Assembly: GCA_000182565.2 (NCBI GenBank)
Contig: KQ257451.1
Reading direction: 5' to 3' (one strand)
Source of the DNA: Spizellomyces punctatus DAOM BR117
Taxonomy: Eukaryota
Length of the DNA: 64,000 bases
The position numbers and the translations under genes are program-made. The notes under the pieces are model-generated. The model ran no database searches, was not told the DNA's origin, and saw nothing but the letters and a program-made list of their open reading frames with translations. How positions within the stretch are numbered: position 1 is the stretch's first letter; the number at the start of each line of letters is the position of its first letter. This document shows positions 1,233 to 45,118 of the stretch, piece by piece.

Positions 1233-1471
1233 GATACAGTGCTTGGTTGATATTAGATCGAGTGCAGTGGACTGGCAGACTTAACACACTTGCTATGACG
1301 TAAAATGTGGACAATGCACGTGCTCAGTCCAAAAAAGTTAACCCCCTACTTTGCACACTTGCTTGCACCCATTGTGTATTCATTATAATCAACAACTTTC
1401 CATATTTCTTCCTTTAATAGAAATATTACAGGAGCGGACCGCGCGAACGCAATCCCTCCCACCACCAAAAA

Positions 1472-4400
1472 ATGTCCACTCACGCTGACTCCGAAGAGCC
1501 AGGTGACCCCGGGCCTTCGAACTGTTGTGCAATGTCGAGAACCCGAGATAGCCACCGCCTTGTTGATCACGGTAAGCTCGTAGCAGGTAAGTATGCAGGA
1601 ACAGGGAGGGGCGTGGGGACGCGCTGCTTTTATAGACGAGAGCAACTGCGCCACAACTGCGCTTGAAAAATGAAAAAACGCGTTGATTGGCTGAATTTGG
1701 CATCGGAATATTTATCACTGTTGACATGGTGATAGTATTACGACACTCACCCGCTCAAAATAGTTTAATGACGTTGTCGCAGTTTTACCTAAGGATTGGC
1801 CTAGTAATTGTCCCAGTAGATCTCTTCATTCCTTGACGCTCGTTTCTTGCGCTTGAGGGTTGAATTTGCCACCTGGGCAATATAGGGCACGGCACTCTTG
1901 GCTAGCATAGTCACCTACTTGCCCCCTGCAACCGATAGAGTATCAAGCCCGACATAGTTCAATATGACGATGCAAGAAACATTGCGAGAGCAAGTTGGCG
2001 CAGAGCTTGCCCAAGAGCGCTACGAGTGTGCAGTCTGCTATGTTATTATGTACCGTCCTGTTTGGTTTTTAGCCGCTTGCTGGTAGTTCCTATCTGGAAA
2101 TGCGTCTTGCCCTTCATAGCAAAAGATCTGCTCAAATATGGTCTTGCAAGACGTGCTGGAGAGTGCTGCATTTGCACTGCGTTAAGAAATGGGCAAAAGC
2201 ATCTTCCGCGAATTGTTCAGGTCAGAAGCAATTCCCATTTCAGCAACGTTGCCATATCTCAACTCCAAGACATACAGGTCGACAACCAGATCTAGATGTC
2301 CTGTGGCGATGTCCCAGTTGCCAGATGTCCCAGAATACGAGTGCGTTGCAATACCGATGCTTCTGTGGTACGGAGTCTAGGTGTCTGGCCTTAGGCCTGA
2401 TGTGCTCTTCAAAAGCTTTGTACTCATTACGCTTACAGAGAAGAAAGTTTCTCCTGAAGTAAACAATTATCTCATTCCGCACAGGTAAAATCTACTTCTT
2501 GAATTTTACCTGGTCGTACCTTATTTTGCTTGCTCTAGTTGCGGTGATACATGTTCACGGACTCGTCTCCATTGTCCGCATCCCTGCACATCGTAAGAGA
2601 CCTGGCGTCCATCACAACCCATTGTCATACTGATGTAGTTATATTCTGTCGTTCAGTCCTTGTCATCCAGGTGATTGTCCCTTCTTATCTATGATGTAAT
2701 AGCCAGCTACACAGCCAGTAGCTAATGTGTCTGTTGCAGGACCTTGTCCACCTTGTGATCGTCTGGGCTCGCCAGTTTCCTGTTATTGCGGAAAAGCAAA
2801 GTACGTCTCTGGAAAGGACCAGTATTTCTTTTCACAAACTTACGAGAACCTTCAGATACTCTGTGCGCTGCAATGACCTTCGTAACCAGAGCTCTTGTGG
2901 TCAACAATGCGGTGGCTCTTTGCTATGTGGGGCTCACAAGTGCCGTTTGACGTGCCATGAAGGTACGGCGGACAAATACCTCACGATGATAAAAGCAATA
3001 TAAGTTGACTCGTTTGTCAGGCCCATGTCCACCGTGCGAATCTGTTGAGATTCAAAGATGTTATTGCGGGTCCGAAATACGGGAGACGTTGTGCGGTGAA
3101 GGGATTCCATTTGTTTATGCAGATCGCGATACCGGGGTTGAGGATATCCGGCACTTCTCATGTGGTCGTCCCTGCCATTTGTACGTAGTGTTATGCTGTA
3201 TTTCATGCTTTGTTGCCAAAAGGTCCTCATCTCTGGGTATATACAGCACGTTCTCATGTGGAATTCATCGGTGTGAGCAAAATTGTCATCCATTCTCCGA
3301 ACATCCATCGCCGTGCCCGCTAGATCCCACTGTTATGTTTGCGTGTGCTTGTGGAAAGATAAAACGGAATGCACTGTCGATACAGAGCAGGACACATTGC
3401 TCAGATCCACCACTAACTTGCGAGTGAGTAGTATGTGACTAGTGTTGATAACGGCTGATGAATTCATTTCCATGGTGCCTGTCTCGTCATAAAGATCAGC
3501 ATGCCAAAAATTGCTGACATGCGGCCATGTGTGTAATCGACGTTGCCATGCGGATCCATGTGAATCAGTTTTGTGCCCCAAGACAGTGAGTTCATAGCTG
3601 CCTACGGCACGCGTACTTTGCTTGATTCATTACTATCATTTCAGACCATACTCAAATGCCGATGTGGGTCGACAACGCACTGTGTGCCTTGCTGGAAGGT
3701 TAAGCATATGACCACTGGTATGTGTCCCCATTTGATGTAGAGGGGAAGGGTGCTGTGCCAACGTTCTCGTTCTCTTTTGGAAGAGATCCGGTGCGATAAG
3801 CCATGTCACCAACGACTTTCCTGCAAACGACATGAATGCACTATGCGATGTTGTCCAGCGTCCGATGCGGCAGATTCAAATGGCGACCATGTGTGCCTAA
3901 AAGCTTGCGGTCGACCTTTGAAGTGCGGAATTCACAAATGCCAGGTATTGACGGTCTTGTTCATAACGGAACGTACCAGCATTGCTGATCTTCTGATCTT
4001 AGGCGCTCTGTCATCGAGGAAAGTGCCCACCTTGCCCAGAAGCATCGTTTAATGACGTGGCATGCCATTGTGGACGGACAGTCCTGGTGAGCATCTGTAA
4101 GATCTCTATTATCACTTTCCACGGCTATAGTAACGGGGAGCGATTGGTTCAGCGCGCACCAATACCATGTAATACAAAGCCCCCGGAATGTTCACATCCA
4201 TGCATTAGGTACATGATGGACCCGTCGCATGCTTTGTGTGCACATTGCTTATTAGTAAATCGAACATTCAATTTAGGCAGCCAGCATGTGGACATGCAGC
4301 CATTCCTCACCCTTGCCATCTTGATGACGTTCCGTGTCCTCCATGCCCTGTACGTTGGTATCATGGCACGGCATAACACATTGGGGCTGATGACGGTACC

Positions 4401-14400: not shown

Positions 14401-14948
14401 CGCTTTTAGTGTGCGTTTGTGTGTTGCTTGCCGTCAGATGACTACTTTTGTCTCTAGATGGTTCACCCAAAACACTTTTTGCACAAGAGATTCCAAACGA
14501 TAAACGACAAGGATTTTTTTACTGTTCAATTTGTGAGCAAGATCTTTTTCACGCTTGTCGCAGTGTTTGATCGTGGTGACCAGTAAGACATGCCGATCAA
14601 ATCATGATGGCCAGCAAGAAACAGCAAAAATACTTGCTTTTGGTTCTTCATGTACGAGGATTGCGCAATGCAGATGGCGGTCTCGTTGCTACAATCTCTT
14701 AAACTCCCCATGCTTTGTTGGCTTTTGCTCCTTCTTGCTCATCCATGAATGCAAATACCCTTATCGCTAATGGAAAGTGGCAGTGGTACAGATGGGAAGA
14801 AAGAGCGCAATTCCAACAATGACCAAATCGCTGTGCATGCACTGTGGGGAAGGACATAAAAGGGCAGGATGTACAGTCCTTCCCCACAGTCCCAAATCCC
14901 AGTCGCCCAACCTCATATCCCACAAACACTCTCTCTCAAAGCAACACA

Positions 14949-20300: not shown

Positions 20301-22302
20301 AGCCCAGATGAGAGTGGAACGAGCCAAGTTGGAGGAATCCTTGAGGATGGTGGAAGCTGACCGAGCTGCCGTCAGCAAGAGGGAAGAAACAGTGCGAAAG
20401 TCGATGGAAGATATTGACAAAAAGAAAGTTGTGTTAGCCGAAGAGTTGGGCAAAATCGATGTGGAGCGGAGTCGAGTGGCCGTTTTGAGAGCACAGGTTG
20501 AACAGGAACGTGTGGAGACGGAAGCAAAACTCAGGACTATAACTGCAAAAGAAGCGGAACTTGCTCGTGCTCTGTCAAATGCACCTGGCTCATTGAAGAG
20601 TTTGGGTGGCGAATCTCCAGAGCGTGTCAAGACTCTTGAGACACAGATCGCACAACTGTCGCTGGAAAGGGACACATTGCGCGAGCGTCTCTCTACTGCA
20701 CTTACGACACACGAAGCGGCCGCAAGGCAGATGAGCTTGCATGGCACTGATGTGCAATCATTACGGGATCGAATTGCGGAGTTGGAAAGGGAGAACCGAA
20801 GCTTTCAAAGTAATGTTTTGCGGCTAACCGACATGCTCGAAAATGAGAGGCGGAAAGATATTGGCGGTGTGGGCATAGGCAAAGGGCCGTCCATCCTGAC
20901 CTCTCCAGTCCCATCTGTCCATACCCATGTAGATGACCGCGTGCATGCATTGGAACTGGAGCTTGCCCGATTACGAACCGCAGTGGGGCAAAATGGCCAT
21001 CCACTCGGGAATGCGGAGCAACAGGGCCTTGCCAACGACAACCGAGGAAGCGACGTTGTGAAACCGTCAATTCAAGCGTGGACTGGCCCCGACAAACTTT
21101 TGTCAGAAGCTGGTGCTGGTGAAAGAGAAGGAAAAACCACGCATGACCTACTTAATGTGATAGTGGCACTGACAAGGTACGTGCGCTACATGTGGGCGGG
21201 AGAGCTGACAACATGAACTAACGTGTGCTCTGTCGATAGTACGAACCAAAGTCTTAGCAACAAGCTGGAAGAGTTGGGATCTCAGCATCGACCACCAGGA
21301 ACGTTACCAATGCCAGTACCCTCTCCCATCCCACCCAGTTCTATGGCACCGCAGGCCCGTACACCTCGTATTCCTGATGTGCGTCCACAGCAAGATCAGC
21401 ATAGCCGGTATTACGACGGGTATGATCGACCTCCATTTCCAGAAGCAGGGGGATCATTTTACGGTGCAGCCGGTAGAGACACGCACCAGGCTGACTATCC
21501 TCGACGACCCACCAGTCCGTATGTTGGCAAAGGTCGTCAGGAGGAAGGGTACGCGACCGACTATGATTATGAAACTGGGCGCGGACTGAGGAGAGGACGG
21601 CCTGTCGTACCTGCTCCTGTGTATTCAAATGGGGATCGTAAAGTGTCTGTCGCGTCCGTGCGCTCTGAGTACAAGGATGCTGATGGAAGTAGAGGGCAAG
21701 CCACACGGAAAGTGGGCGGGGTCTCCGTGCCAGATGCCGCCGGAAACAGCAGTAGAAGAGAATCGGAAGCACACAGGGGGTCAAGGGGACCATCGACTAC
21801 TCGTCCTGGCCCTTACCAGACTACGCGAAGAATGAGTATCACCTCGGATCGCTCAGATGCTGCTAGCCATACATCCACGTATTCCACCGCAACAGCTGCT
21901 GCTGCCGCTGCAGCTGCCCGAACAGCTGCATTGAGAGCAAAATTAGAGGCTGCAAGAGCACGAGTTGGTGGCGAAAGCACTGCAGCCCCTAATCTTACAA
22001 GTGCCAGCGTTCCTGCTCCGGTTCCGTTGCCCGAAGCGGTTCGACCACCGCAACCCACTAGGTATCGCAACCCTCCACAAGGAGCACCACGATCATCTTC
22101 CGCAGATCGCGACAAGGACCGCGAAGAAAGGCCGAGAAGACCCAGTGGACGACACCCACCATCTGAGGCTACCACGGGTATGCAATTGTACTTTAGTAAT
22201 GAGGATTTAGCCGGATTCAGCGAAACTACCAAGAGAATCTTGTTTGGGGAGGGAGAAGGTGGTAGTAGTAGAAGTGGACATGGGTCAACCAGAGGGGCAT
22301 GA
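17377..22302 (+). CDS. Large coiled-coil protein (golgin/pericentrin-like N-terminus), about 1600 aa, 4 exons
   Basis: Exons 1-2 read MGDADKEREEKLKLARKK/LNKFRQKK; long E/R/Q/A heptad region in the 17659-21216 ORF; intron near 21177-21239; low-complexity C-terminus. Confidence 0.8.
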
Positions 22303-22688
22303 GCTTGTGCAGTTGTATGGAAACAATGCGGAGCGTGTATTTTCTTGACACGAGCTGTCATGTGGGGATGGGTGATTGTAAAGACCTCTTTCTTTTGCTT
22401 TTATGTTGATTTTAATTGATGATTTTTTTCTACATGGTATTGGATGTATGTTGCCATCTGATGGACATTGCTCATATATACGGAATTTCCAAATCGGCGG
22501 CTGCTGTAAAAAGCTTCTTGTCAAGTGAACGGCAGTGGTATTATAGTGGGCAACTACGTGGATGTATTCTACCGTTTTTTGTGGGACTTGCATTGGGGTT
22601 TTGCCGCTGTTTAATGTCAACGTGGATCCGCAGCTCATCCAGTGGTCGTAATAGCTATGAAGGAAAACACTTTTAGTGAATGTAACCT

Positions 22689-22759
22689 GCATTGGTGGTT
22701 TAGTGGCATAATTACCGCCTGCCACGCGGTAGACCCGAGTTCGATTCTCGGCCAATGCA
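22689..22759 (+). tRNA. tRNA-Gly (GCC)
   Basis: GCATTGG/CCAATGC acceptor stem, anticodon arm ACCGC-CT-GCC-AC-GCGGT, GTTCGATTC T-loop, downstream T-run Pol III terminator near 22778. Confidence 0.95.
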
Positions 22760-24810
22760 TTAGTGTAACACAGGATCTTTTTTTTGTCCAACGGTTGCTG
22801 AAGGGAAAGCCTCTCCGCCCTGTAATGAGCTGCACATGACAAATGAGCTAGTTCCATTTAAAGTCATGAAAGGTTGCCAGCTGGCGATAGTTAGTGGCAG
22901 GGGCAGGGAATAAGCCGAATGCAAACGTTTCTGATGTTCGGGCAAAAGGCGATATGCCCAGAGGTAAACCCTAGCCGTTGAGCAAGAGCTCAGGCGCTGC
23001 AAGAGTGAGATAACTCTATCTGATGACTGCAAATGCCAAAGGCCTAGAGCAGACTCATTGTGGAAGAACATTTGTTGTATTTTTCACTTGATGTAACATG
23101 CATATGTCGACATGGCTTCCAGAATTTGTGAGAATCCCAATTGTGGCATGGAATTGTGTAAAAGGATGGAAAGGGTAAAATTGGTCGGAGGAATGCCGCT
23201 AATCGTGTCTACTGCATCACTTGTCCGTTAAAATGGGTGATTTTCTACCAGTGTGCAGGGGACGCTGCATCTATCCCAGTCCAGATCTGCTTAGGAGAGG
23301 AACGTAGACGAGGAAAGTCTGTAGTAGGAGTCTGACCTAGAGCAAGGACAATGCGATGTGGCCATCCTGACGAGTCCAATAATTCTCATCTGATGGATGG
23401 AAGGTAGGGAGGGTCATCCGGCCTCGCTAGATCTGTCGGTGTATTGATGCAACTTTTGGAGCGGGAGTATACCATGACTCGGAATGGGTATTGTATTGGA
23501 ATAGGCTTTGTGTATATACGCTGTCTTTGTTATTGCAACAGACGTTATGTGTATACGCTTGTGTTTGTTATCTTGGATGATCCTTTGATGAGTTTGGCCC
23601 TCGTTGAACCTGACGATCTGGGGATGTTGGAATATCGTTGACGGGGTTATGAGATACGGAAAAAGCATAGTTGCAAAATGCCCCACGCATCAACGTTTCT
23701 CTTGTATGGTGAATTCGACCATCTTTACTACACCAGCATCCTCACAAAATATGCGCAGCTCATCCCGATGCTCCGCTTTCTCGCCCCCCGCTCCGTTGTC
23801 ATCCGCCGACCTTGACAGGATTTGGCACGATAACTCATTGCAAATTCGTGCTGGCCCAAAATAAGATGCAGATTTTACTGACCAACGGGCGGTAAGCTTG
23901 AGTAAACTTAACCCAAAAGAGCCTGTTGCGTTCATACTGTAAAAGGTGCGCCAGCATACTATTAGAATAAAATGAATGAGGAACGGACTGTCTCTCCCTC
24001 TCTCAAAACTAAGGATCACTATCAAGTAAAACGCATATCATGCATATGGCACCTTATTCTACTCAGGGCCTTTCATGAAATGCTGGTCGATATCATGATG
24101 GACAGGTATGATCCATTTTGCAAAGCCTTGTACTATTTCCCAAGCCCAAAAGTTTTGGGTTCACAAGATACTTAGTTCATAACGTCAAATTTCACAGATG
24201 CCGAACAGAATGGGGAAACCATCGCTCTGTGACTATGAGGCGCTTCATGGAGACGTTTTCAACGTCACTTGATCTCATACTTGGACACGAATGGCATTCT
24301 TACAGAAGTGATAGAGTCCAAGAACAAGGGAATAGAACTGGAAAGAACGTATTGCAGCTCTCAGCATGATCAATCGGGAACATCAAACCTTTTACATCGA
24401 ACTCTCTGGGTATGGCGAAACAGTCTGCAAAGCACATACATTTGTGCATCAGCACCCTGCCTAAACTGTCCAGTTGGATATCAAAGTTTGGTCTCTGCGA
24501 TCTATTTACATGAAGCGACTATCACACGATGATTTTGGTACACAAGAATGGCAGATAGACCATGTCATCCCCGCATCACATATTTCCAAAATTTAACTAT
24601 GTGCACGACTATTCTCCCCCATCAAATGAGGGATGTCGGCAATTACAACTGTCCCCTCCATCAAATGATGGATATCAAGTGCTTTTTGCCGCACGTTTCC
24701 TTGTATCTGCAATATGCGACGCTGCGCAGTAGAAGTTTGTCCGCCACTCCGGACGCGCGTCAATTTCCGAAAGTTAATTAAGAGTATTACTAGGCAACCC
24801 GCATGTCAGC

Positions 24811-24818
24811 TATATAAA
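24811..24818 (+). promoter_or_regulatory. TATA box upstream of the structured repeat array
   Basis: TATATAAA about 30 nt before a C-rich tract and a 12-bp perfect hairpin. Confidence 0.45.
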
Positions 24819-24892
24819 CGGGTAGAACGCGCCCCTCCTCGCTCCCCCTGCAGCGATTGCATCGCTGCAGGGTCCTCAGAGGTATCCAGTTC

Positions 24893-25441
24893 TTGGCGGG
24901 TTCGGTTTATCCGAGCACAACTCTCCGTTGGGTTCGCCTGATGGAGGTTAGGACGTGTGTGTTTTCACTCTGTCCGACGCCAAAGGGTGGATATCTCCCA
25001 AGTTGCTTTGGGTACCTGCTCTGCAATGATGCGGGGTGGGTGTTGGCGGGTTCGGTTTATCCGAGCACATCTCTCCAATGGGTTCTTCTCATGGAGGTTA
25101 GGACATGTGTGTTGTCACTCTGTCCGACGCCAAAGGGTGGATATTCTCCCAAGTTGCCTCGGGTACCGTGCCCTGTATCGTGCGGAGTCCAGTTCTTGGC
25201 GGGTTCGGTTTATCCGAGCACATCTCTCCAATGGGTTCTTCTCATGGAGGTTAGGACATGTGTGTTGTCACTCTGTCCGACGCCAAAGGGTGGATATTCT
25301 CCCAAGTTGCCTCGGGTACCGTGCCCTGTATCGTGCGGAGTCCAGTTCTAAGGGCGGGTTCGGTTTATTCGAGCACATCTCTCCATTGGGTTCGCCTGAT
25401 GGAGGTTAGGACGTGTGTGAACTTTCACTCTGTCCGACGCC
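24893..25441 (+). repeat. Tandem array of about 3.6 copies of a 150-155 bp unit with conserved predicted RNA structure
   Basis: GGCGGGTTCGGTTTAT recurs at 24895, 25045, 25198 and 25353; copies 2 and 3 are near-identical; followed by a 21-nt poly(C) at 25452-25472. Confidence 0.95.
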
Positions 25442-25840
25442 AGGCTGGATTCCCCCCCCCCCCCCCCCCCCCAGAGGTGGGCTTGTTGGTTTTTCCATTT
25501 GAACTCCGTTGTATACTGCTAACGGATATCTTCATGTAGGAACTATTAACATTTCTTATCTTCATATAGGACCAAAATGCTGCGGGATATATGACCGGTC
25601 AGTGATTAAGAAGAATCGAGCTGGTAAGGTTTTGTGAGCACATTGTCTTCGTATCTCTCAGAAATTTAAGGCGTTCATACAATATAGATTCGGACACGTA
25701 CGCTTTCCTCAAACCTCCGCCGCCTGTTCTCCCCCTTTTCGGTTCCGGACGATGCTCGCCAAAGTAACATCAAGACCGAGATTCAGAAGACGTACGGTTC
25801 CTTTCAAGAAACACAAGAATCGTTTATGACTGGACAAGTC

Positions 25841-26010
25841 GAATGGGAATGGGAATAAATGTGAATATGGATGGGAATGGGAAGAACTGTGAATGGGAAT
25901 GGGAATCATGTATAAATCTCGATGTAAATGGGAATGCAATGATGGGATGGGCGCTGTGGATGTCGAATGGGAATGGGAATAAATGGATATGCAATGATGG
26001 GGATGGGCGG
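25841..26010 (+). repeat. Degenerate (GGGAAT)n / GAATGG hexamer repeat tract
   Basis: Repeated GAATGGGAATGGGAAT blocks near 25841, 25891 and 25965. Confidence 0.7.
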
Positions 26011-26298
26011 AAGGTTGCTGGGTAATAAACTATCTTATATCACATTCTTCATTGCTATTTCAAAATGCTCGTTATGCCTTTTGCATTTGGATTCACTGCA
26101 AGTTCAATGCCATGCAAATATCACTATCTCTTCGTTCCCCATTTTTGTCCGAAATTTTTGTACCACTGGATGAGTCAGCTCTGATGTACGAGATCATGGG
26201 GGATATGACCTCTGAATTTTTTGTTTACTGATGTTTACTACTCGAACTTGTGCATAAGAATACTAGAAGAGAGCGCTTGGATTGGACGTTTACCCATC

Positions 26299-29007
26299 AT
26301 GTCTTTGCGAAATCGGCAGCAGAAAGCTGAAACCAATATGCTGGACGAGAGGTCTAGCTTGTTGGATGGAAAGGTCAATGACAGAAGGCGAGGAGCTCAG
26401 GTTCGTACTCTTATCAATGAACAAATGCATGTCTATTTAGTTTTGGGGTGCTAACGTTCGTGATATTCTTTTCTGCGCCTAGTGGTTTGGATGGCAGCAT
26501 TTTATCGTCTTTCCGCTCCTGATTGGAGCGCTGTACGTTTTATCTGGTTCTCGTCGAAGTCTGATCAATGAGTACAGGTACATGATGGCATATTCCAACG
26601 ATTGCAAACTAGACCTATTGACAAGTCCTTCACAGTCTCCCATCATATTACATCATTCACAATGCCCGAGTCTACACGGTCGATGATGTACAACCGTTTG
26701 CTGAGGCGTTCGTTGTCCGCGACGGGCACTTTGTAGATGTTGGAAGCGGGACAGAGTTACGGCAAGCCTATCCGGATGCAAAAGCGGTGGATGCTGGTGG
26801 GCGGATGATTGTTCCCGGGTTGATTGACGCGCATGCGGTGCGTGTCTGTAGCGCCTATCTATGTGGAAAGAATGAGCATTCGCTAACAAACCGGCAAATA
26901 GCATCTCATTGAACAGGGCCTGGCCCTCCTGCAGGCAGACGTAACAGGAGCCATGACCCTAAGTCAAGTACGATCTCGCCTCGTGTCCTACCTTGATGCC
27001 CACCCTGATATTGAAAGTAACAAAGAATGGATTATCGGCAAAGGATGGGACCAAACTAAATGGCCGGAAACAAATCACCAATTCCCGAACGCCTCCGATT
27101 TGGATCACCCCCGTCTTAGGCATATTCCCATTTGTTTGTTCAGAATTGACTACCATGCGTTTTGGGTCAACGAAGCAGCTTTGGAAAAGATTGGAAAAGT
27201 CCCGAAAAAGGTGGATGGCGGGGAGATTGTGCGTGATTCGAATGGACGTCTGACGGGTGTATTTTTGGATAATGCGATGGATATTGTTGACAATGCGATG
27301 GAGAGACCTGGCGAAAAGAGGCTGGCGGAGGCTATCGAAGCCGTCACCCAGAGAATGGTATCGTATGGTTTAACCGGCTTGCATGATGCGGGTGTGCTAC
27401 CGTGGCAGCTGGACTTTCTGAAGAGGTACGCGTTGAAGTTCAGACCAGACTCATATTAGTGCGATGAGCTGATTGCTACCCCAGCATAGTAGATGCTGGG
27501 CGTCTCCCGATTCGTAACTGTACGTTGGGGCTGCTTTCGCGCGTTACTACCTGATTATCCACTCTAATAACCGACGCAGACGCAATGATCAAATGTCCGG
27601 ATCCCGCACATTACTGTGGCGATATCGTGCCCCAGCTATTCAATTATGGTGATCGGCTGACAGTTCGCTCTGTAAAGTTGTTTCTTGATGGTGCTGTTGG
27701 ATCATGGGGAGCTGCCATGATTGAGGTACATCGCATATTTTACAAATATCCATATCATTACTCATCCGTGTGGTGGGATTGCTGGCACTTTTCTACTTTA
27801 GCCTTACTCTGACGATCCTACCAAGAGCGGATTCTTGCGCATGAATGAGACCGATCTGCCGGATCTGGTGTGGAAAGTATGTGAAACATGTCTTGTGTCA
27901 ACGTATGCACTCTCCACCGTATCTGACGATGGTATCGTTTCCCACAGTGGATTAGACATGTATGTCCAGCATTATTGCCGGAAAGCTTGACTTGCACCCT
28001 CATAGAGCATACAGGGATATCAAGTGAACACCCATTGCATAGGCGATCTGGCCAACAAGATCACTCTGGACGCCTACGAAGAGGCTTTTGAGCGTCTGGG
28101 AGAGCAAGGGAAAGACCTGCGGTTGAGAATTGAGCACGCGCAGATGGTGGTATGTTGTTCTTGCTGTTCTTGTTGGGATCATTTCTTTGTCTTTACGTAG
28201 TCCCCATTGGTGACAGAGATTGGAAGATATACCGCGATTTGCACGGTTGGGTGTCGTGCCGTCCATGCAGCCTACACATGGTTTGTAGTTTAGCCAATAC
28301 TTTGGTTACCACGTCGTACTTGGTGTTAACTATCAGATTATGCAAAGCGACGAGTGATATGTCGTATGTCGGACGTCGGATAGGCCCAGACAGGGTGCGC
28401 GGGGCTTATGCCTGGCAGTCGCTATTAAACGCTGGGTAGGTCGGAGTGTTTTTGCATCATATTGAATGTTCCAGTGTTGTGTGCTCAATTTCTCGCGGTA
28501 CAGTGTTTCCCACATTCCCCTTGGATCAGATTTCCCAATCGAAGGCATAAACCCGTTGCTCGGGATCTATGCTGCTGTGACGCGAACTGATGTTGACGGA
28601 TCATCGGTATGTTCTTGGCCCGGATTTTAGGATAAGCGCTTTATGGAGCTCTAAACCTTGATACTTGTGTTTTTAGCCGCATGGACCAACCGGATGGTAT
28701 CCTTCTCAGAAACTCAACAGAACACAAGCTCTTAAAGGATTCACGTTGGATGCAGCGTGGGCCGCGTTTCAAGACAGTGAGGTATAGTAGATTCAGTCAG
28801 CTAAATCCAATTGAGCAAAACAGAAGCCAATCATTCCCGTTCCAGCTTGGTTCGATCACACCTTCCAAAAAGGCCGATTTCGTCATATTTGATACTGAAT
28901 TCATGAAAGACGATTTGCCTCCATCAAAAATATTGGAGACACAGGTGGTGACGACAGTTGTAGGTGGAAATGTTGTCTACGGGACGCTGGGTGGATTCAC
29001 AACATAG
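26299..29007 (+). CDS. YtcJ-like amidohydrolase (Amidohydro_3) with N-terminal membrane anchor; many introns
   Basis: [122 protein letters not shown]. Confidence 0.93.
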
Positions 29008-43370: not shown

Positions 43371-45118
43371 AGTTAATAACAGAGTGTGTGTAATCGATGA
43401 TTAATCTTGATGCGATGGAAAAAAAAAAAAAGGGCTGTCGTGAGGTGAATCAAGACGAATGGATAAGATGGCCGATAACGGAAAAAATAAATGGCCCTCC
43501 GCCCTTCACTCGCGCGTCGGATTTTGACAGGTTGATATAGTCGTTTGTTGGGATTCTCCGTTGGGGCAGAATGGAAACAAAGAAAACAGAAAGGGGGCAG
43601 AAAGAAAACCTTACGTCTTTTTATACTCCCGTTGTTTTCATTTAAAAATACAAAACAATTTGGGGAATATCGATGGATGTCTTTTCCATATGACACCTAC
43701 TTGTGTATCTCCCTTGATTTTTAGTTGGGATTTGGGGGGGGGGAGTTTTTTGAATACAAATCACCCGATACCCTCCGCACACACACACAAAACTCTTTGC
43801 AGTCGCTTTCGGAAAAGGCTGTGGTTTTGAAAGGCGTTGTGTGTGTGTGCGGTGGTGGATGGGTGGAAAAAAACGCGTCAGTGATTCAAAATGTTTAGTT
43901 TTGTAGTTTAAAGAAAACCCATGGGGCCTACAAGTAGTTGCTATCAAAAACAAGCGGGCAATTTCGGGATGAAACTTGAAGAATGATAAAGGGTGTAAGA
44001 AGCATATTGGAATTAGGGTATTACTGATATTTTACAATATATTTGGGCAAACTTATGGATTTCATTTAGAATGAACAAAAGATGCAAAAAATGGATATGC
44101 CACCATAAAAGAGTTTGAGAGGGTTTTAGCCACCCTTTTAAAAGTTGGCTCTGGAACTCGATTTCTTCTCCCACCACCCCGTTCTGTTTGTTACAATGCA
44201 CAACGGTCATTCTCGTACCCAAAAGATCTACTTTATCGGATAACCGCAACTACAAGTACAGACATGAGATACACTCGCGTTATTCTCAAGATGGGCTTGA
44301 TTTCTGTTCAGGTAAATAAAATCGTACCTAAAAAAAAAGGGCCTAGACAGATATTGTGTGTGTGTGTGGGTCGATCGAATCAACGAACAGATCTCGGCCA
44401 TGGCTATCTCACGCACAAGACACACTCATGAAGGCGCGCGTTCAAGCCTCCTCGGCTGTGGATTTCTATCTGATTGAAATGACATGTGAAAGTAAAGAGA
44501 TGGAAATCTCCCCCCTTCATTGCAATGCGTGACAAAACACGCGCAGATTGAGATGCAAAGAGATGACTCTAATGTCACTCTTCCATGACACACACATATG
44601 CAAAAGTAAACACACACACATGTGCCATAAAAAAACCTTAAAATTCCCCCCCAGCAATTGCCCCTCCGCCATGGTAACAAAACACAACCGTTATCCCATT
44701 GTTTGTGAGTTCCGCACATGTACAAAAAGCGCAGTGGTCCCTTGAACCAGGTATTAGTTACTGATTGATTACGGTCATCCCCAGGGACTCGGTTCGGCTC
44801 CTCCCGGGAACAAGAGTTTTTTTCATTTCTGAAGTTACAGGGATATAGGATAAATCTATGGAGGTATCCGAAATGCGTACTACATTGTTAGGGTCATTGA
44901 TTTTTGTGACCCTTTTTTACGGCTGCCAAATTGTTTACAGGCGCCTCCGTGCCGCAAAGATTGTGTTGTTATTCTAACTTGTTACAAGGCCAGATAATTC
45001 TGGGAATGGAACCTGACGTTCGTCAAGGCTGTGGAGACCTCTGCTTCAGGAACAAAACCATGGGTCTTTCCTTATCAGAATATGAATGTGTAATATCCAC
45101 CTCTATGTGCTTTTGAGA

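Follow-up and report, generated by a model that had tools for sequence, protein, structure and literature searches.

Long non-coding RNAs built from repeated modules, such as NORAD and the fission-yeast meiRNA, recruit several copies of RNA-binding proteins, while hammerhead satellites and retrozymes are tandem satellite transcripts that carry self-cleaving ribozymes in monomers of about 150 nt. To our knowledge, few non-coding RNAs of filamentous fungi have a defined higher-order fold, and no fungal transcript is known to us that contains autonomous four-way junctions in tandem. Tandem modules that recruit several copies of RNA-binding proteins are also described for the lncRNA Xist (PMC8786293). 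In the literature we found no description of such a tandem four-way-junction array, though the supplementary motif alignments of PMC5640933 could include a related motif. Because non-coding transcripts of repeated modules and minisatellites are both already known, the kind of feature described below is not in itself new.

The locus lies within a 64-kb stretch of DNA from the fungus Spizellomyces punctatus (the window, i.e. the whole stretch that was analysed). It shares with Xist, NORAD and meiRNA a putative Pol II-type transcript context, a tandem module of ~150 nt, a predicted fold for each module and a lack of coding potential, but it differs from them in having only four copies, two of which are identical, and in a module that is predicted to form a compact four-way junction as opposed to a short motif or simple hairpin. 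The array is real and matches no known RNA family. Our preferred reading, which we hold tentatively and at somewhat less than even confidence, is that it forms the 5' portion of a non-coding transcript that Pol II reads from the + strand, that is restricted to this lineage and that is built of repeated structured modules. We are more doubtful of the further-reaching proposal that the modules make up a new family of ~90-nt four-way-junction RNAs. In this case, a non-coding Pol II transcript of a fungus would carry four of them in a row, with a clamp hairpin on the 5' side and poly(C) on the 3' side, and they would serve either as a multivalent scaffold or sponge for an RNA-binding protein or as the polycistronic precursor of small RNAs that form a new class.

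The elements of the layout that the earlier note had laid out, namely TATATAAA, a 12-bp hairpin, four copies of a junction and a C21 tract, are all present at the locus (Table 1). Tandem Repeats Finder (TRF) delimits the array at 24885-25442, with a period of 153, 3.6 copies, 89% matches and a score of 854. Within it, the four core units measure 88-94 nt (~90 nt) and follow each other at start-to-start spacings of 150, 153 and 155 nt, and a 24-nt core motif occurs four times against an expectation of 0 in a pattern search. Conservation is uneven along the repeat: a 67-nt core block is 90-96% identical among copies, while copies 1 and 2 share only 71% identity over the full 153-nt period, the distal part of spacer 1 being the most diverged part of the repeat. 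Copies 2 and 3, on the other hand, are 100% identical over 153 nt, spacer included, so that the array holds only three distinct unit sequences. Identical copies of this kind are the behaviour of a young, unstable minisatellite, an observation that runs against the preferred reading. In each spacer, a small hairpin of the CCCAAG..TTTGGG type stands between the 3' strand of one outer helix and the 5' strand of the following one. Contigs from a DNA sequencing run end at 24961 and restart at 26025; they do not span the C21 tract and are neutral as to both this tract and the array, and two further runs yielded 0 contigs on the locus, which is no sign that the array is absent.

Table 1. Positions of the array and of the features on either side of it, in window coordinates (native-window ranks are out of 12,782).
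Feature	Position	Strand	Remarks
Candidate Pol II TATA box, TATATAAA	24811-24818	+	Read in the sequence; putative promoter element
Perfect 12-bp hairpin, 3-nt loop	24846-24872	+	Inverted repeat, 100% complementary; at or near the presumed 5' end of the transcript
Unit 1	24879-24997; core four-way junction 24893-24984	+	Core -41.6 kcal/mol, z -4.63; native-window rank 12
Spacer 1	24985-25042	+	From alignment and whole-array fold
Unit 2	Core 25043-25134	+	Core -37.5 kcal/mol, z -4.49; native-window rank 45
Spacer 2	25135-25195	+	From alignment and whole-array fold
Unit 3	25184-25302; core 25196-25287	+	Identical to unit 2, with spacer; core -37.5 kcal/mol, z -4.49
Spacer 3	25288-25350	+	From alignment and whole-array fold
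Unit 4	25337-25453; core 25351-25444	+	Core -37.9 kcal/mol, z -2.95; native-window rank 22
Poly(C), C21	25452-25472	+	Starts where the other spacers have CTCCC
Downstream transcription unit	25473-26044	+	Imperfect (GAATGG)n (25841-25906 and 25965-25980), AATAAA (26024-26029), poly(A) site after CA at 26043-26044; putatively continuous with the array

The + strand MFE fold is the same four-way junction in all four units, and consists of a closing helix around three hairpins, as the earlier note had drawn it. Among 200 shuffles of each core, 0, 0, 0 and 1 were as stable as units 1 to 4, respectively, and G-U pairs account for 3-6 of the 31-34 pairs in each unit. The reverse complements of the units fold much less well (-26.3 to -27.0 kcal/mol, z -2.24 to -3.07), which agrees with the + strand preference that had been proposed. 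The junction is kept despite a divergence of ~4-10% in the 67-nt core, indels in the loop of hairpin 3 and a re-registered hairpin 2, which in unit 2 carries a 5-nt loop; in unit 4, the closing helix is cut to 4 bp and hairpin 3 is one pair longer.

Sequences flanking the junction had also been proposed to pair (GGAGTCCAG/CTGGATTCC type), and this pairing is real: units 1, 3 and 4 have an outer helix, which is absent from unit 2. In unit 1, the outer helix is a perfect 10 bp (24879-24888 with 24988-24997, GAGGTATCCA with TGGATATCTC), and the extended unit folds at -59.0 kcal/mol on the + strand versus -37.3 kcal/mol on the - strand. The helix of unit 4 likewise has 10 bp, two of them G-U, and enters the C tract (extended unit, -53.5 kcal/mol), while that of unit 3 is interrupted (extended unit, -49.1 kcal/mol). 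In the first and last units, every position of the outer helix is paired, and the indels that distinguish the two helices match, TA being present on both strands in unit 1 and on neither in unit 4.

To place these energies against the local background, we took 92-nt windows from both strands of the 64 kb at a step of 10 (n=12,782), predicted the fold of each and corrected its energy for dinucleotide content by regression. The in-register + strand windows of units 1, 2 and 4 have z-scores of -3.61, -2.93 and -3.27 and fall in the top 0.1-0.4% of native windows, whereas the matching - strand windows are ordinary (z -0.86, -1.45 and -1.46), and the fold is therefore a true outlier and strand-specific. 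A palindrome that acts as DNA would be strand-symmetric, as is the 12-bp hairpin upstream, which is equally stable and equally extreme on both strands in the same scan (as DNA, its fold has -15.2 kcal/mol and z -5.28) and may for that reason be a DNA-level palindrome. The asymmetry of the units thus counts in favour of an RNA.

These comparisons bear equally on a second explanation, according to which the array is a neutral minisatellite in a long, ORF-free intergenic region that is weakly transcribed, its short inverted repeats favouring slippage and duplication and its fold being a functionless by-product. We consider this explanation possible and nearly as likely as the preferred one, and a working RNA and a transcribed minisatellite are not yet distinguishable. 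Stable folds are not rare in this region: 15 distinct loci in the window reach z <= -3.2, i.e. are as stable for their composition, and the region is rich in long perfect inverted repeats. Single-stranded DNA parameters yield this junction as well (+ strand z -3.23 and -3.64), which likewise speaks for this second explanation, and, the array having been picked from a very large scan, its extreme fold would in part be a selection effect. The locus further resembles a minisatellite (VNTR) in its head-to-tail arrangement, its period of 150-155 bp, its identical neighbouring copies, which point to a very recent duplication, and the simple repeats next to it (C21 and (GAATGG)n). It differs from one, however, in a strand-specific, composition-corrected fold together with transcription of that same strand. 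The multibranch fold is moreover kept in all four copies despite their divergence, unlike at the other stable loci that we looked at, which are long simple inverted repeats, and the full pairing of the terminal outer helices, matching indels included, is likewise not readily expected of a neutral repeat. It is in any case unusual for all copies to share a strand-specific multibranch fold and for the strand in question to be the one transcribed.

The differences between copies had been put forward as pairing-preserving variation, and a covariation analysis had been suggested to follow this up. RNAalifold on the array's own four copies, as extended units, gave 37 pairs, of which 0 had changed on both sides, and a covariation term of 0. 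Similarly, 0/32 pairs had changed on both sides in the core alignment under the structure named in the earlier note, and the covariation score observed for that structure was reached by all 500 of 500 shuffles. Standard pairs fill 95.8% of the 96 pair cells, compared with 37.6-52.1% when the partners are slid. The changes that keep pairing come down to four single transitions (G-U to A-U twice and G-C to G-U twice); by our own count, ~57% of random transitions in these stems would keep the pair, so that four out of four corresponds to p ~0.1. The supposedly remodelled stem of hairpin 2 in copies 2 and 3 proved to be a one-base register shift with a bulged A and no clean compensatory swap. What had been taken for pairing-preserving variation thus consists of one-sided transitions that do not stand out from chance, and the covariation argument for structure is statistically empty. 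The three distinct sequences give such an analysis very low power, however, and its outcome is therefore neither for nor against structure. The lack of compensatory changes is also a point in favour of the minisatellite explanation.

Stranded RNA reads provide a different line of evidence. We mapped raw reads from one run with the same species label, of which ~6% was read, on positions 24000-27600. Over the array, reads are found on the + strand only, as had been anticipated, and at low depth: five bins over 24847-25451 have + depths of 0.62, 1.12, 0.63, 0 and 1.36 (0.6-1.4 where covered) and a - depth of 0. A depth of only ~1 is in keeping with a weakly transcribed minisatellite. To the left of the candidate TATA box, RNA is found only on the - strand (depth 3.85 in 24605-24725), and the signal thus switches across this box from - only to + only, the latter from the bin 24847-24967 onwards; TATATA is palindromic, so the candidate box could act in both directions. 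Further downstream, + depth is 0.98 in 25573-25693 and then 33.7, 107.7 and 71.6 over 25694-26056, so that expression of the array amounts to ~1% of the depth at 25815-25935.

The 3' end of this downstream signal is polyadenylated. In 7 reads, an untemplated A12 loose end follows position 26044, 15 nt after AATAAA, and nearly all depth there comes from first mates on the + strand; it follows that the first mates have the orientation of the RNA and that this site is the end of a Pol II transcript of the + strand. First mates outnumber second mates by 581 to 21, and this ratio, together with the depth peak within 350 nt upstream of the poly(A) site, suggests a 3'-end-biased library, which also appears to have been poly(A)-primed and could as such not reveal small RNAs. 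The reads appear cut at 25443-25482, around the C tract. Within the array they carry three variants: 25086 T>G, in the loop of hairpin 2, and 25411 A>G and 25413 G>A, in the stem of hairpin 3, where pairing is kept (A-U to G-U and G-U to A-U). The RNA reads therefore come from another strain or from another copy.

The depth profile fits a single ~1.2-kb transcript seen through a 3'-biased library, and is explained just as well by two RNAs, one a weak upstream transcript and the other abundant, separate and ~350 nt long; the steep rise from 0.98 to 33.7 at ~25694 could just as well mark a start site of its own. Under our preferred reading of a repeat-module transcript, RNA synthesis would begin a short way past the TATA box, near the 12-bp hairpin, and would continue through the four modules and the C21 tract to the poly(A) site after 26044. 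Each module would then fold by itself into the closing helix and its three hairpins, with the outer helix enclosing the junction in three of the four units. The most likely action of such an RNA would be that of a multivalent platform, presenting four copies of one folded surface and a C-rich tract to one or more RNA-binding proteins. That the array encodes a multivalent structured RNA, as the earlier note had suggested, is a reasonable but unproven proposal.

Comparison with known RNA families offers no simpler identity for the unit. Rfam 15 (4227 models) was searched at gathering threshold, and also at E<=10 on 24600-25700; no model matched within the array at E<=10. The sole match in that interval, to SNORD44 at 25513-25570 (15.6 bits versus a gathering threshold of 40, E 3.7), is junk and lies outside the array. 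ARAGORN reported one tRNA gene over the window, likewise outside the array. Taken together, these searches uphold the view that the unit is unlike a tRNA, 5S RNA, snRNA or known small ribozyme. The unit does recall a tRNA in its length of ~90 nt, in having a closing helix around three hairpins, and in a first hairpin with a 6-bp stem and a 5-nt loop. In contrast to a tRNA, however, its middle hairpin has 10-11 bp and a loop of 4-5 nt, there is no 7-nt anticodon loop and no T-loop motif, and 2 nt lie between hairpin 3 and the closing helix.

A Pol III gene or tRNA-derived SINE does not fit: no T run follows any unit, which makes Pol III genes unlikely, unit 1 contains an internal TTTT, and no dispersed copy is found in the window. 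GGTTCG words are present, but by eye they do not fit the B box consensus. Also by eye, none of the features of C/D or H/ACA snoRNAs, HDV-type ribozymes or hammerheads fits the unit. The motif CCUAACC on the - strand of each unit was considered as a telomerase template and rejected, since it is a 7-mer that is repeated only because the unit is, and no - strand reads are found there.

The array might alternatively be a polycistronic precursor of stable small RNAs of ~90-150 nt, which would form a new class and would be released at the outer helices or spacers, either through self-cleavage or through an enzyme of the RNase III type. Units 1, 3 and 4 stand on extended stems of ~18 paired positions (10 + 2 + 6 in unit 1), which could be substrates for an RNase III-type enzyme, and transcribed tandem monomers of ~150 nt, each with a multi-helix junction, recall the transcripts of self-cleaving satellites. 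Unlike in hammerhead satellites and HDV-type ribozymes, however, words that resemble a catalytic core are not kept between the copies: the hammerhead-like CUGAUG, found in hairpin 2 of units 1 and 4, is replaced by CUCAUG in units 2 and 3. No self-cleaving ribozyme family (hammerhead, HDV-type, twister, twister-sister, hairpin, pistol or hatchet) matched the array at E<=10, which leaves the ribozyme multimer proposed in the earlier note without a candidate among these families. Fungal variants of HDV-type ribozymes, which may not all be in Rfam, are described in PMC5640933, and by inspection against the description given there, the helices of the unit are not in the order of the HDV-type nested pseudoknot. 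Unit 2 moreover has no outer helix. On balance, we regard a precursor of this kind as quite unlikely.

A further set of explanations places the function of the array, or its origin, at the level of DNA, either as a tandem cis-regulatory array serving a bidirectional promoter or the abundant 25694-26044 transcript, or as a relic of transposon subterminal repeats. The location of the array, between the - strand RNA signal at 24605-24725 and the strong + strand transcript at 25694-26044, would suit such a role, as would the symmetry of the 12-bp palindrome on both strands. Just upstream there are two occurrences (24613-24637 and 24652-24676) of a 25-nt palindromic motif similar to the spacer motif GGGTGGATATC, and the 150-155 bp period is close to nucleosome size. 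On the other hand, no other copy or fragment of the unit was found in the 64-kb window, either by a pattern search allowing 3 mismatches and self-blastn or, for diverged copies, by a covariance model of the unit run with filters off (next match 10.8 bits, E 1.4). By eye, neither terminal inverted repeats nor a target-site duplication surrounds the block, and an array of binding sites would leave the strand-specific, G-U-rich fold unexplained. A DNA-level element is thus improbable in our view, though less so than a small-RNA precursor. Scans of metagenome, viral and prokaryotic-genome contigs gave 0 matches, as did blastn at distant settings against plasmids. The preferred reading thus draws no support from conservation, but all of these collections are without eukaryotic genomes, so the lack of homologues in them counts for little. 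The viral or mobile 5' leader suggested in the earlier note found no support in these blank collections or in the window, where the array has no second copy.

Protein-coding potential was assessed for the array and for the sequence downstream of it. With 150 and 153 nt, two of the spacings are divisible by three, and over three units the + strand has two uninterrupted frames, of 164 and 150 codons, as might be expected of a protein-coding tandem repeat or a pseudogene derived from one; the 155-nt spacing, however, breaks both frames at unit 4. Among 231 candidate homologues for the protein of frame 1, none reached E<=0.01. Frame 2 had just three matches among 1.84 billion representatives, all of them tandem-repeat ORFs, two being single-member clusters from ENA contigs of 73,474 and 46,686 bases. 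These were rejected as homologues on the basis of a shuffled-unit control, and one of the matches is an unrelated bacterial repeat protein. Scores in this control have a heavy tail, 90 being reached once in 12,000 shuffles versus the observed 115; by our own extrapolation, the frame-2 score stands at ~1e-5 to 1e-6 per target and so lacks significance in a library of that size. No ATG-led ORF with a signal peptide or processing sites was found, and a 60-codon ORF at 25843-26025 had no candidate homologue. That the array encodes a protein, or once did, is in our estimation very improbable.

The significance of the locus depends on which of the two leading explanations applies. If the fold is functional, the array would provide a compact and tractable model of how multivalency arises from RNA repeat modules, as well as a new structured RNA family that could seed searches in other fungi. 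If the array is only a transcribed minisatellite, it would serve as a caution that a strong, strand-specific predicted fold and one-sided, seemingly pair-preserving transitions can arise without selection.

At gathering level, Rfam matches in the whole window are limited to a U1 spliceosomal RNA (1431-1594, - strand) and a tRNA (22689-22759), the latter identified by ARAGORN as tRNA-Gly(GCC) at 22688-22760. The long ORFs of the window encode proteins of eukaryotic type, namely a protein kinase, a P-type ATPase, SAM-domain and BK-channel-like proteins and an amidohydrolase. In a pattern typical of filamentous ascomycetes, and taken here as a sign of nuclear fungal DNA, the amidohydrolase gene, which lies downstream of the array, has short introns of the GTRNGT...CTAAC...YAG type.

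The array of predicted four-way junctions sits in a stretch of about 3.4 kb without a long ORF (22860-26290), while the rest of the window is gene-dense. Reads from run X5, a partially sampled RNA data set carrying the same species label, reveal an abundant polyadenylated RNA on the + strand downstream of the array (25694-26044, depth 34-108). This RNA holds ORFs of only 25 and 60 codons, and a search for homologues of the 60-codon ORF found none. Features of this RNA, and of the window as a whole, are collected in the table.

Mapped features of the window
Feature	Position	Strand	Remarks
U1 spliceosomal RNA gene, full-length	1431-1594	-	Rfam match, 85.1 bits, E 1.2e-19
Long near-perfect inverted repeats	14799-14890, 21909-22000, 43769-43860		15-19 bp stems
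tRNA-Gly(GCC)	22688-22760		T run after gene; left border of ORF-poor region
25-nt partly palindromic motif, two copies	24613-24637, 24652-24676		Both under - strand signal at 24605-24725
Imperfect (GAATGG)n	25841-25906, 25965-25980		Inside 25694-26044 RNA
AATAAA	26024-26029		Within 25694-26044 + strand RNA; from sequence
Poly(A) site	after 26044	+	3' end of 25694-26044 RNA
Amidohydrolase gene	start near 26299		Right border of ORF-poor region

Transcription was also detected on the other side of the array, where a - strand signal in run X5 (24605-24725, depth 3.85) lies immediately left of the candidate TATA box. The promoter may be bidirectional and give rise to this signal as a short, divergently transcribed RNA. 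The 25-nt motif that it covers twice is similar to the array spacer motif GGGTGGATATC, and the - strand fold of the interval is nothing unusual (z -1.52). In the same run, all five - strand reads over 26326 (G>C) and 26332 (A>G) differ from the window at these positions, consistent with RNA from a strain other than that of the assembly.

Two further resemblances were considered. A sub-threshold SNORD44-like Rfam match beside the array (25513-25570, - strand, 15.6 bits, E 3.7) arises from a pair of direct repeats, each of 15 nt (TATCTTCATGTAGGA, TATCTTCATATAGGA); it has no D box, and no - strand reads from run X5 cover it. When the frame-2 (+ strand) translation of the array was used as bait, it recovered P0001 and P0002, predicted "proteins" of 55-residue tandem repeats on ENA contigs of 73,474 and 46,686 bases, which are probably translated satellite DNA. 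Both align periodically with the array translation at 29% identity, a similarity put down to chance on the strength of a shuffle control.

Elsewhere, the three inverted repeats are the stablest 92-nt windows of the 64 kb relative to composition, and the arms of one of them consist of a CA/TG microsatellite.
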